IMG/VR virus record: IMGVR_UViG_3300020204_000005
DNA length: 64,000 nt
DNA from: a virus
Reading direction: 5' to 3' (one strand)
This document shows positions 15,082-29,452 of this stretch, piece after piece. Both the position numbers and the translations under genes were made by a program. How positions within the stretch are numbered: position 1 is the first letter of the stretch; each line of letters starts with the position of its first letter. The notes under the pieces are model-generated. The model did no database searches, was not told the origin of the DNA, and saw only the letters and a program-made list of their open reading frames with translations.

Positions 15082-15154
15082 TGGTACGTAGCTCAATGGT
15101 GAGAGCACGACGCTTATATCGTCACGGTTATGGGTTCGAATCCCATCGTACCAA
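15082..15154 (+). tRNA. tRNA-Ile(UAU)
   Basis: Acceptor TGGTACG/CGTACCA; anticodon loop ctTATat; T arm ATGGG-ttcgaat-CCCAT. Confidence 0.85.
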
Positions 15155-15162
15155 CAATATTT

Positions 15163-15245
15163 GCCCGAGTGGAGGAATTGGTAGTCTCACTTGTCTTAGG
15201 AACAAGTGCTCTCAGAGCGTGTGGGTTAGAATCCCACCTTGGGTA
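15163..15245 (+). tRNA. tRNA-Leu(UAG)
   Basis: Acceptor GCCCGAG/CTTGGGT; CTTGT-ctTAGga-ACAAG; long variable arm; atypical T loop TTAGAAT. Confidence 0.8.
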
Positions 15246-15249
15246 CAAT

Positions 15250-15343
15250 AAACACATAAACTTTGGTTCCCATACAGCGGTGAGGTGGGCTAAGTTATAT
15301 ACAATTTCTCGGAGCTGGAAGTAGAAAGCCAAAGAGTGTGTTT
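15250..15343 (+). ncRNA. Candidate ~95-nt rod-shaped RNA between tRNAs
   Basis: Ends pair AAACACA/TGTGTTT and CTTTGG/CCAAAG; internal CAGC/GCTG. Confidence 0.35.
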
Positions 15344-15353
15344 AAAATAATAT

Positions 15354-15428
15354 GGTGTCGGTAGCTCAGTAGGTAGAGCAGAGGTTTGAAACACCTTGTG
15401 CCGAGCGGTTCGATTCCCTCCCACACCA
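15354..15428 (+). tRNA. tRNA-Phe(GAA), possibly degenerate
   Basis: GAGGT-ttGAAac-ACCTT; C.C mismatch in the acceptor stem and an extra base in the T stem. Confidence 0.65.
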
Positions 15429-15434
15429 CAAAAC

Positions 15435-15510
15435 GCCTTCGTAACTCAATAGGTAGAGTACTTGATTTGTAATCAAGATGTTGCAGGTTCGATTCCTGTC
15501 AGTGGCTCCA
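15435..15510 (+). tRNA. tRNA-Thr(UGU) with encoded CCA and mismatched acceptor stem
   Basis: CTTGA-ttTGTaa-TCAAG; GCAGG-ttcgatt-CCTGT; acceptor GCCTTCG/CAGTGGC has T.T and C.A mismatches. Confidence 0.7.
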
Positions 15511-24093: not shown

Positions 24094-24239
24094 ATTATTT
24101 ATTGTTTTAGATACAATAAATATAGGTTTAATGTTTATAAATCAATAACCAATTAATTAATTTTTATTAAATTAATATAGAAACCAATATTTCCGAAATG
24201 ACTGTTTCGGAACTTTTTTATTTTTTTTTTCTTAAAGTA

Positions 24240-24700
24240 CTTGTCAGAAAGAAAAAAATGTTTAACTTTGTAAAACAAATCAGAAATAACTGATAACGTT
24301 CTTTTAAATAATTTAGTATTAACTTTTAAAAACTCGAAAAATGAGTGAAGGGACACAAGTTCTTGATAACTTGATTTTTTCCTACATTGGAAAAAACGGT
24401 GTTAGGTACCACACCCCAAATCCAAATTTAGCACAGGCACGTGCTAATTTTTACGAGACATACACTGTCTACGTAACTAAAGTGGAAGAGGTAGAGGGAA
24501 AATGAAAAAAGTTAACAAAGTACTTGACAATTAAAAAAAATTGTTTAACTTTGTAAAACCTTTCAGATAAAGGTTGGAATTACCGTAAAACAAAGGTCTC
24601 CTAAATCTGAAAAAAAAAGTAGAGAAAAATTTGGAAGTTTAAAAAATTGTTCTTAACTTTGTAAAACAAATCGGAAACGTCCGATAACGTTCTTTGAAAT
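24240..24700 (+). promoter_or_regulatory. Three tandem Bacteroidota sigma-A promoters; two followed by boxB-hairpin + boxA-like elements
   Basis: TAACTTTG at 24263, 24546 and 24654, each with an upstream TTG. ATCAG-aaataa-CTGAT-AACGTTCTTTTAAAT and ATCGG-aaacgt-CCGAT-AACGTTCTTTGAAAT. Confidence 0.75.
24341..24505 (+). CDS. Small hypothetical protein, 54 aa (not in ORF track)
   Basis: MSEGTQVLDNLIFSYIGKNGVRYHTPNPNLAQARANFYETYTVYVTKVEEVEGK; follows the first promoter. Confidence 0.6.
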   Translation: MSEGTQVLDNLIFSYIGKNGVRYHTPNPNLAQARANFYETYTVYVTKVEEVEGK

Positions 24701-24709
24701 TTTAGATAT

Positions 24710-25575
24710 CCATTCAGGAGTAGATTAAAATCTTAGGATTTGAAACTGAAACTGATAAAGATATTGGGCCGTATATAGTCCATAAAATAAACCTCGAAAG
24801 GGGGATAAAGTGGAACCATCAGTGTTAGTGGTTCTGCGGTTTGGGAAACCGAACTCGAGTATACAAGTGGGATATCAGTGAGCCTGTAGTACCGAGGATA
24901 ACTTCGTAGGGAAATGGAAAACTGAATAGGCAATGTGGATTGTCTGTTTGAGGTGGGAACACCAATAAGAATAACCCATAGGAATCAAGTGAGAAATGTA
25001 TTTCCAAATACATGATTGCGGGTTCCAATATGAGAGGTGACTTAAAACCGAAGGGGTAATACCTGAAGGTAAGATAGAGAACGAGTGGTGTCGCTACTAT
25101 CCTTACCACAGACCCACCAAGGTCTTGGTACGAAGTAATCTTAAAATATGGAGGTAGGGATATCTCACGGAGTAGTATAGTATTCTGTTTCTCAAAAGGA
25201 AATGGAGCTTAAGGTGGACCACTACTTCGATTCATCCACGACACAAAAACTTTACTATTATTGAAGTAACATTTAAGAACATAAAGGAAAAGTGTCCATC
25301 AGGTTTTGGTGAAAGGTGACTACATAGTAATGAGCCGTTCATTGCACACAAGGACCCCAAGTCTGAGTGTAGTTTTACCAAAGACCTCTAGTCCCGCAAG
25401 GATTTATTGGGGAGGCATCCTCGAAGAGAGTTGAGTAATAAGAGAGTAACCAAAATCTCAAGGAGTGGTAAACCTAAAAGACCGTCACTGAGGAATACTT
25501 CTTAAAAGGAAGTGGATAAGAGTAGAAACAATAATGACTCTAAAGGTTCTCAATTAACAGGTGTAATCTCAGCCT
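24710..25575 (+). ncRNA. Giant structured ncRNA, GOLLD-like (class not confirmed)
   Basis: About 870 nt, GC/purine-enriched, no credible ORF. Many short hairpins with GNRA-like loops (CCTC-gaaa-GGGG, TCC-cgcaa-GGA, ACTTC-ttaaaag-GAAGT). Ends ...GTGTAATCTCAGCC before a T-run; adjacent to a tRNA. Confidence 0.65.
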
Positions 25576-25643
25576 TTTTTTAGCTATACATTGTTAAACG
25601 TAAAAAGGTAGTTCGTTAGTTTAAAAATGATATATTTATATAT

Positions 25644-28974: not shown

Positions 28975-29372
28975 TGGTGGAGGTATGCGGAGTCGAACCG
29001 CGTCCTGCTCACATTACCTACTAAGGACTACACGCTTAGGTCAACATTTGAGCTAATGTTCCGAAATTTCACAATTCCCTTATTTTTAAAGTGGTTCGGT
29101 TTACTGAGAACTAATCCTCCACTTGTTCCTTTTCGGGTAGAAACCACACCTTTGTAAAGACTTCTGTTCCTGGGTTATATGTCCACCGACCCGAAGGTTT
29201 CGCTTAATCTGATTAAGCTACCGCCACTTCCTCAGTACGAACAAGTCCTACTGCAGAAAGTTTGTTGATAACGTTGCCGTTTATCGATTTTGAACCATTT
29301 TAACAAGGTTAGATTCATCCTTGACGTGCCCCGAGTAACTAACTATGACAGTCAATTTCCAAGGTTACCCCC
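28975..29372 (-). ncRNA. ssrA: tmRNA
   Basis: 5' GGGGGTA pairs with 3' TACCTCC-ACCA; T arm GCGG-TTCGACT-CCGC; tag ORF 29278-29213 GNVINKLSAVGLVRTEEVAVA*; TATATTTG promoter on the minus strand at 29397-29404. Confidence 0.9.
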
Positions 29373-29452
29373 ATATGTTAAAGAACTTTTGTTTTACAAA
29401 TATACAAAAAAAATCCTTATTATCAAATTTTTCAATATTTATTTGTATAAAT

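Follow-up and report, generated by a model that had tools for sequence, protein, structure and literature searches.

Leaders of rRNA (rrn) operons contain tandem promoters followed by boxB, boxA, and boxC elements, and the complex acting there consists of NusA, NusB, NusE/S10, NusG, SuhB, and S4 (PMC10250234, PMC4807359). In the nut sites of phage lambda, boxA and a hairpin in the nascent RNA recruit Nus factors and yield a termination-resistant polymerase; boxA precedes boxB in these sites, and the loop of boxB is specific for the N protein. In phage T7, a boxA antitermination element is located behind the early A1–A3 promoters for host RNA polymerase (Savalia et al., 2010, cited in PMC3709561). 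Among cellular genes, suhB is regulated by boxA, for which the consensus GYTCTTTAANA has been given (Baniulyte et al., 2017, PMC5725501).

The stretch described here, positions 24240–24700, is likely to be the control region of a phage GOLLD RNA gene, built like the rRNA-operon leader of Bacteroidota. The window—that is, the whole stretch of DNA analyzed, 64,000 nucleotides in length—corresponds to bases 21616–85615 of a 102,672-bp IMG/VR virus record, which, with an estimated completeness of about 35%, represents part of a very large phage. The G+C content of the phage DNA is 31%. The promoter type and a T9SS cargo gene point to Bacteroidota as the host, and a search for cultured relatives with a known host returned nothing beyond huge phages from metagenomes and distant phages of Acinetobacter. 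GOLLD (Rfam RF02032), reportedly described by Weinberg et al. in 2009, is among the largest non-coding RNAs of bacteria and phages. The RNA forms a 14-mer cage, with the nanocage visualized by cryo-EM (PMC12286853).

In the window, the GOLLD RNA occupies 24706–25575 on the plus strand (RF02032, 314.4 bits, E = 3.8e-89), with its 5′ boundary inferred from the block conserved in relatives directly after boxA. It comprises a variable 5′ domain (about 24706–25167) and a conserved 3′ domain (25168–25575); the latter is the part matched by Rfam, over the full model (positions 1–416) and at 314.4 bits against a gathering threshold of 150. Like known GOLLDs, this bona fide match (314 bits) resides in a phage and adjoins tRNA-related sequence; unlike in the Rfam family, it has a leader that lies outside the model and is lineage- or host-specific. 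From the sequence, a T-run adjoining the GOLLD 3′ hairpin (25576–25582, plus strand) is a possible transcript end. The window also contains a tmRNA on the minus strand (mature RNA at 29372–28975) and, elsewhere, five tRNAs, all identified with Rfam. Upstream, a terminator scan revealed a bidirectional terminator-like hairpin with a T-run on both strands (24191–24212), which closes the preceding units, so that P1, the first promoter of the stretch, begins a new transcription unit.

The sigma-A promoter of Bacteroidota has the consensus TTTG, a spacer of about 19–21 nt, and TAnnTTTG. The initial annotation had placed three promoters at 24263, 24546, and 24654, and the −7 element TAACTTTG is indeed present at all three, on the plus strand. 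P1 (24240–24270) combines a −33-like TTG (24241–24243), a 19-nt spacer, and the −7 element at 24263–24270; P2 (24524–24553) has TTGACA (24524–24529) and a −7 element at 24546–24553; and P3, the GOLLD-proximal promoter (24630–24661), has TTTG (24630–24633), a 20-nt spacer, and a −7 element at 24654–24661. Each of these predicted promoters thus shows TAnnTTTG with TTG 19–20 nt upstream, and we take all three to be of the Bacteroidota TTTG/TAnnTTTG type. The 8-mer TAACTTTG alone is not enriched (8 matches versus 6.2 expected); extended by TAAAAC to a 14-mer, it has exactly three copies in the 102,672-bp record, all at this locus, P2 included. There is no convincing terminator between the promoters, and P1, P2, and P3 therefore probably all feed GOLLD. 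A terminator-like hairpin with a T-run is present on the sense strand at 24428–24447, inside a small open reading frame (ORF), and is not conserved in the related locus L187.

P2, located 108 nt before P3, is followed by a different element without a boxA-like word, in agreement with the earlier wording, which had assigned the shared cassette only to the other two promoters. This "mini-unit" (24561–24621, plus strand) is predicted to fold into a long stem, with 24561–24568 pairing with 24605–24612, followed by an A-run; the stem structure spans about 50 nt and stands directly upstream of the GOLLD promoter. An equivalent unit of promoter, stem, and A-run was found at the same place in L184, L187, L219, L252, and L281, with different stem letters. 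A short RNA and an UP-element-like spacer are candidate roles for it.

The cassette said to recur after the first and third promoters was recovered behind both P1 and P3. In each case, the hairpin is followed by three bases and then by the boxA-like word GTTCTTT(T/G)AAA, whose first base lies 35 nt downstream of the first base of the −7 element. The P3 word GTTCTTTGAAA (24689–24699, plus strand), located 27 nt past the −7 element, with the GOLLD body following 7 nt later, exactly matches the rrn boxA of several Bacteroidota. In the P1 word GTTCTTTTAAA (24298–24308, plus strand), position 8 is occupied by T. Perfect copies of the 15-mer AACGTTCTTTKAAAT occur at 24295 and 24686 and nowhere else in the window, and the two cassettes share about 80% identity over 52 nt within the same genome. 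In both strands of the whole record (205 kb), only five consensus-type words were found, three of them 18–35 nt after a −7 element. P3 falls into the best-scoring class of the cassette model R1 (74.6 bits). Its word is predicted to be unpaired in both the minimum-free-energy and centroid folds of the 42-nt and 99-nt leaders. A permissive-threshold Rfam search of the leader returned no match.

The two boxB-like hairpins, both on the plus strand, are predicted to have a 5-bp stem with a 6-nt loop at P1 (24279–24294) and a 6-bp stem with a 4-nt loop at P3 (24670–24685). Their stem energies are −3.9 and −6.8 kcal/mol, and single-sequence folding gave no significant signal for either (z = −2.3 and −1.1). 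Each hairpin alone is thermodynamically unremarkable, and the case for the hairpin is thus comparative. The arms ATCAG/CTGAT at P1 and ATCGG/CCGAT at P3 differ in one pair, and the compensatory change claimed for them is real. Among 29 distinct related cassettes, in a model-guided alignment that was itself fitted to the model, double-sided changes were observed in three of the five stem pairs, and 82% of the stem cells were paired as against 72.6% in shuffles; none of 500 shuffles reached 82%, and slid controls were far lower. The position of the P1 hairpin is also paired in related cassettes. Across the relatives, the letters of the hairpin vary, as does its length, from 4 to more than 10 bp. 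In L173, L227, and L249, the hairpin is missing while the word is kept, which is consistent with a dispensable boxB.

An exact scan for the 15-mer across 185,579 genomes returned 120 places, only two of which lay before a 16S gene; the others were mostly chance matches or copies of an element repeated close to the ends of Bacteroidales contigs. The rrn leaders were therefore collected directly via the 16S 5′ end, giving 38 unique leaders from a sample of Bacteroidota genomes. The motif proved to be like the rrn boxA of this phylum, the point on which the initial annotation depended: a word of this class was found 80–235 nt before 16S in 31 of the 38, and a word at most one mismatch away from the phage P3 word GTTCTTTGAAA in 17 of the 38. 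The background in the rest of the same loci was 0.02 (word class) and 0.006 (at most one mismatch) per 260 nt. Among the rrn words are the exact P3 word, a version with A as its second base, and words ending in GACA, GAAT, GAAG, and GATT, and every ending seen in phage cassettes (GAAA, GAAT, GAAG, and GATT) has an exact rrn counterpart. In one Bacteroidota genome, the identical 15-mer stands 124 nt before 16S. The match holds at the level of the phylum, and the leaders of Flavobacteriaceae carry a GTTCAT-type word.

The arrangement around the word is also comparable. In rrn leaders with a −7-like element within reach, boxA lies 27–73 nt after it, mostly 37–50 nt, often with a hairpin between the two, and in several rrn operons of Flavobacteriaceae, every one of the tandem promoters is accompanied by a boxA of its own. 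The cassette model R1 hit rrn leaders in the right places (about −80 to −180 from 16S) with E values of 0.1–6, which are supportive though not significant alone. In four leaders of the Flavobacteriaceae type (L155, L156, L159, and L160), the boxA-like word of each tandem promoter is followed by a conserved ATTGAATTGACAGC-like block, which may be a local boxC or one strand of a leader helix. The repeated element of Bacteroidales (L004, L028, L029, L093, L104, and L114) has a conserved block about 25 nt upstream of the 15-mer and a ACGATTTGAAT-like block downstream, and is possibly the end of an insertion sequence, unrelated to rrn.

Conservation before GOLLD was assessed by scanning viral contigs with a 15-mer at the GOLLD 3′ end, which gave 115 loci. 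At −1000 to −750 from this end, the word (one mismatch allowed) had 36 matches in 91 loci, compared with 0–2 in other bins (0–1 in those away from upstream cassettes) and none on the opposite strand of that zone. Additional matches at −1000 to −1500 mark further upstream cassettes; in relatives, cassettes located between about −1120 and −1190 have a TTGG...ACAG block behind them that resembles the one after rrn boxA. When loci were ranked solely by similarity of the GOLLD 3′ domain, with a cut-off of more than 195 bits and at least 1 kb of upstream sequence, the word was kept in all 38 related loci, about 790–910 nt ahead of the GOLLD 3′ end and in every case in the sense orientation; the enrichment over background is about 36-fold. 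Because these loci have a common origin, the count partly reflects inheritance. What stays fixed among 31 distinct cassettes is the −7 element, a brief A-rich start, and bases 1–7 of the word; these cassettes were gathered by searching for the word, which makes its invariance there partly circular, unlike the count of 38 loci. The flanks of the word carry only 0–1 bit per position across 25 distinct GOLLD-proximal contexts.

Two further sets of GOLLDs carry the element in other surroundings. In an independent lineage (L175/L237 and L255; Rfam GOLLD scores of 212–225 bits), a sigma-70-type promoter and an unrelated hairpin are followed by GTTCTTTAAAA. In the 635-kb metagenomic phage LR745206, a hairpin and the word stand before GOLLD directly after a tRNA and without a promoter, which favors an element acting at the RNA level; another cassette in this phage stands before a different tRNA. 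Co-occurrence with GOLLD, which had been put forward as a check, was found within this lineage (38 of 38 loci), and the signal is not universal to GOLLD. Eight GOLLDs that belong to other lineages and are confirmed by Rfam have no boxA-like word, nor do Acinetobacter phage AM24 and the 642-kb phage LR756502, and the proposition that all GOLLDs have boxA was rejected. The proteobacterial boxA (GCTCTTTAACA) is not enriched before GOLLD loci. The word missing in other lineages is indicative of a lineage- or host-specific expression signal rather than of a part of the GOLLD fold. Indeed, the leader element was also rejected as part of the conserved GOLLD structure, being outside the Rfam model and absent in other lineages, with no consistent pairing partner for boxA found inside GOLLD.

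Two features of other GOLLDs were observed in the course of these comparisons. In L182, which belongs to a GOLLD lineage without boxA, a Pistol self-cleaving ribozyme (L182:837–912, minus strand; 69 bits) precedes the GOLLD 3′ domain (L182:94–475, minus strand) by about 360 nt and may cut the GOLLD 5′ end. In L175, a tRNA (L175:9032–9103) is embedded in the GOLLD 3′ domain (GOLLD at L175:8707–9166, minus strand), and the same is seen in L237. A tRNA inside the 3′ domain has been reported for some GOLLDs.

The cargo of the cassettes extends beyond GOLLD. The initial annotation had assigned the rrn-type leader to a giant unit of non-coding RNA and tRNAs; this was upheld for GOLLD, and the tRNA part was dropped, as the tRNA cluster (15082–15510) has no such leader. 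The P1 cassette stands before the small ORF, which is conserved (24341–24505, plus strand; 54 amino acids), and the signal is therefore not specific to stable RNAs. The product has no Pfam family, and is 43% identical over 40 amino acids (E = 2e-8) to that of the ORF at the same place in L187. The T-at-position-8 variant of the word also heads the homologous small-ORF unit in L187, L184, and L276. In relatives, a structured RNA of about 150 nt without an Rfam match stands upstream of GOLLD behind its own cassette of promoter, hairpin, and boxA (L184:3403–3617, L187:2567–2781, and L252:5199–5413, all on the minus strand; also L194). Its ends can pair with each other, and it is absent from this window.

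The tmRNA has a leader of this kind as well (29376–29404, minus strand). A −7 element (29404–29397) is followed by ten A-rich bases and the word GTTCTTTAACA (29386–29376), 3 nt before the mature 5′ end and without a hairpin. The cassette model R1 matched this leader with an E value of 0.038, and three of five distinct related phage tmRNA leaders (L253, L246, and L249) show the same arrangement. Among 30 sampled tmRNA genes of Bacteroidota hosts, nine have a boxA-like word just a few bases upstream of the mature 5′ end, some almost letter-identical (L287, L289, L306, L303, L291, L295, L293, L296, and L298). We know of no description of a boxA-like word before Bacteroidota tmRNA genes.

Compared with the rrn leader, the phage region has stacked strong promoters, a hairpin before boxA, a word identical to that of Bacteroidota rrn boxA, a similar spacing from the −7 element, and a long, untranslated, highly structured RNA as cargo. 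It differs in that the cargo is GOLLD (and tmRNA) rather than rRNA, in that the initial transcribed region is A+T-rich—the rrn region being G+C-rich after the −7 elements—and in that neither a clear boxC-like element after the boxA nor a leader–trailer helix is evident at P3. As in the lambda nut sites, boxA and a hairpin would act in the nascent RNA, in our case by inference. The order is reversed, however, and the letters of the hairpin are free and the hairpin itself dispensable, whereas the lambda boxB loop is N-specific. A lambda-type nut site was rejected on these grounds, the hairpin preceding the word and the letters of loop and stem varying freely, and no N-like protein was identified. 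Like T7, the phage places a host boxA behind strong early promoters for the host polymerase, without a lambda N-type protein. In E. coli, the T7 boxA leads an early operon of protein-coding genes, whereas stable non-coding RNAs of a Bacteroidota phage are headed here and the GOLLD leader has an rrn-like hairpin and promoter stack. The suhB gene likewise exemplifies a boxA at work outside rrn, and the word in the phage tmRNA leader fits GYTCTTTAANA exactly; the Nus complex represses suhB (PMC5725501), in contrast to the positive effect, through read-through and yield, to be expected in the phage. BoxA being already established in lambda, T7, and suhB, what is new is a known signal on a new cargo, GOLLD, in a little-studied phylum. 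A full-text literature search returned no paper linking GOLLD with boxA, antitermination, promoters, leaders, or Nus factors.

GOLLD is thus probably made by the termination-resistant rRNA transcription machinery of the host. This reading rests on the word, its position, strand, and conservation, the covariation of the hairpin, and predicted single-strandedness, while Nus binding and antitermination would operate as in the rrn system of E. coli (PMC10250234, PMC4807359, PMC8632103). In the proposed mechanism, host sigma-A RNA polymerase would initiate a few bases after each −7 element, and the nascent boxA would be captured by host NusB–S10 (NusE), which, with NusA and NusG, would remodel the elongation complex. 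The polymerase would become resistant to Rho-dependent termination over the approximately 870 nt of untranslated RNA, and would possibly elongate faster and help co-transcriptional folding of the RNA. The leader hairpin may have a dispensable boxB-like or 5′-protecting role, and the word in the tmRNA leader may do the same job for tmRNA. No NusB or NusG is encoded by the phage in the 102.7-kb fragment, so that host factors would be used; a control search found NusB in Bacteroides. To our knowledge, the function of boxA has never been tested in Bacteroidota. A further-reaching idea, which we regard as rather improbable, is that the boxA leaders, beyond ensuring read-through, make GOLLD, together with the phage tmRNA and other cassette-led RNAs, engage host rRNA synthesis through transcription from the stacked strong promoters, either by titrating NusB/S10 off the host rrn operons and so stopping ribosome production, or by loading ribosome-biogenesis factors or ribosomal proteins co-transcriptionally onto the GOLLD cage. 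GOLLD would then, if this is true, mimic rRNA, and would depend for its function on being synthesized in this way.

Other readings of the hairpin and word have to be weighed against antitermination. The hairpin could be a 5′-end stabilizer and the word the site of another factor—a phage RNA-binding protein, an RNase, or the machinery of GOLLD and tmRNA 5′ maturation—with the likeness to boxA being convergent or incidental. Hairpins at the 5′ end often protect bacterial transcripts, and the word stands only 3–4 nt before the RNase P cleavage site in tmRNA leaders, while the conserved part of the GOLLD body begins about 7–10 nt after it. Yet, in all its variants, the word is identical to rrn boxA of the host phylum and stands in an rrn-like order and spacing, and the cargos behind it (GOLLD, tmRNA, tRNA, a small ORF, and a non-coding RNA of no known class) are unrelated, a diversity that does not fit a cargo-specific processing signal. 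We therefore consider this alternative unlikely. Still less likely is a DNA-level operator, in which the inverted repeat and/or the TTC-N3-GAA core would be bound by a phage or host repressor that gates the promoters during infection. The A+T-rich word does contain this palindrome, which could be read in duplex DNA; relative to the promoter, the element spans about +10 to +40, a position from which operators can block transcription, and the compensatory changes keep the DNA palindromic just as they keep the RNA stem paired. However, the half-sites of the repeat vary freely, from 4 to more than 10 bp, and are sometimes missing, unlike in a sequence-specific operator, and the P1 and tmRNA variants break the TTC/GAA palindrome while keeping the first seven bases. 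The strictly sense orientation and the promoterless element of LR745206 also argue against an operator.

That the hairpin and U-rich word form a leader attenuator—a weak intrinsic terminator limiting or regulating transcription into GOLLD—is highly improbable, even though a simple terminator scan flags 24670–24685 and the T-rich stretch after it. The stems are weak, a spacer of 3–4 nt separates the stem from a U-tract broken by G and C, and some relatives and all tmRNA leaders have the word without a hairpin. In a separate evaluation as intrinsic terminators, the P1 and P3 hairpins were rejected, having weak stems and no immediate, uninterrupted U-run. The cassettes could finally be passengers, P1 and P3 being duplicated promoter modules whose downstream likeness was inherited without a separate function, as their approximately 80% identity over 52 nt in one genome might suggest. 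The comparative data largely refute this, since the word stays fixed while its flanks drift across 25 distinct contexts and persists behind another promoter type and with unrelated hairpins, and we give this explanation hardly any credence.

An rrn-type leader in front of GOLLD suggests that this RNA is synthesized by the host polymerase, probably early and in bulk, and protected from Rho, and knowledge of such a leader may be of use in designing constructs for GOLLD expression in vivo. Furthermore, the host tmRNA genes of Bacteroidota often carry the same word as the phage leaders. Antitermination of the boxA type, studied almost only in Proteobacteria and their phages, would be extended by the GOLLD leader to Bacteroidota and their large phages.
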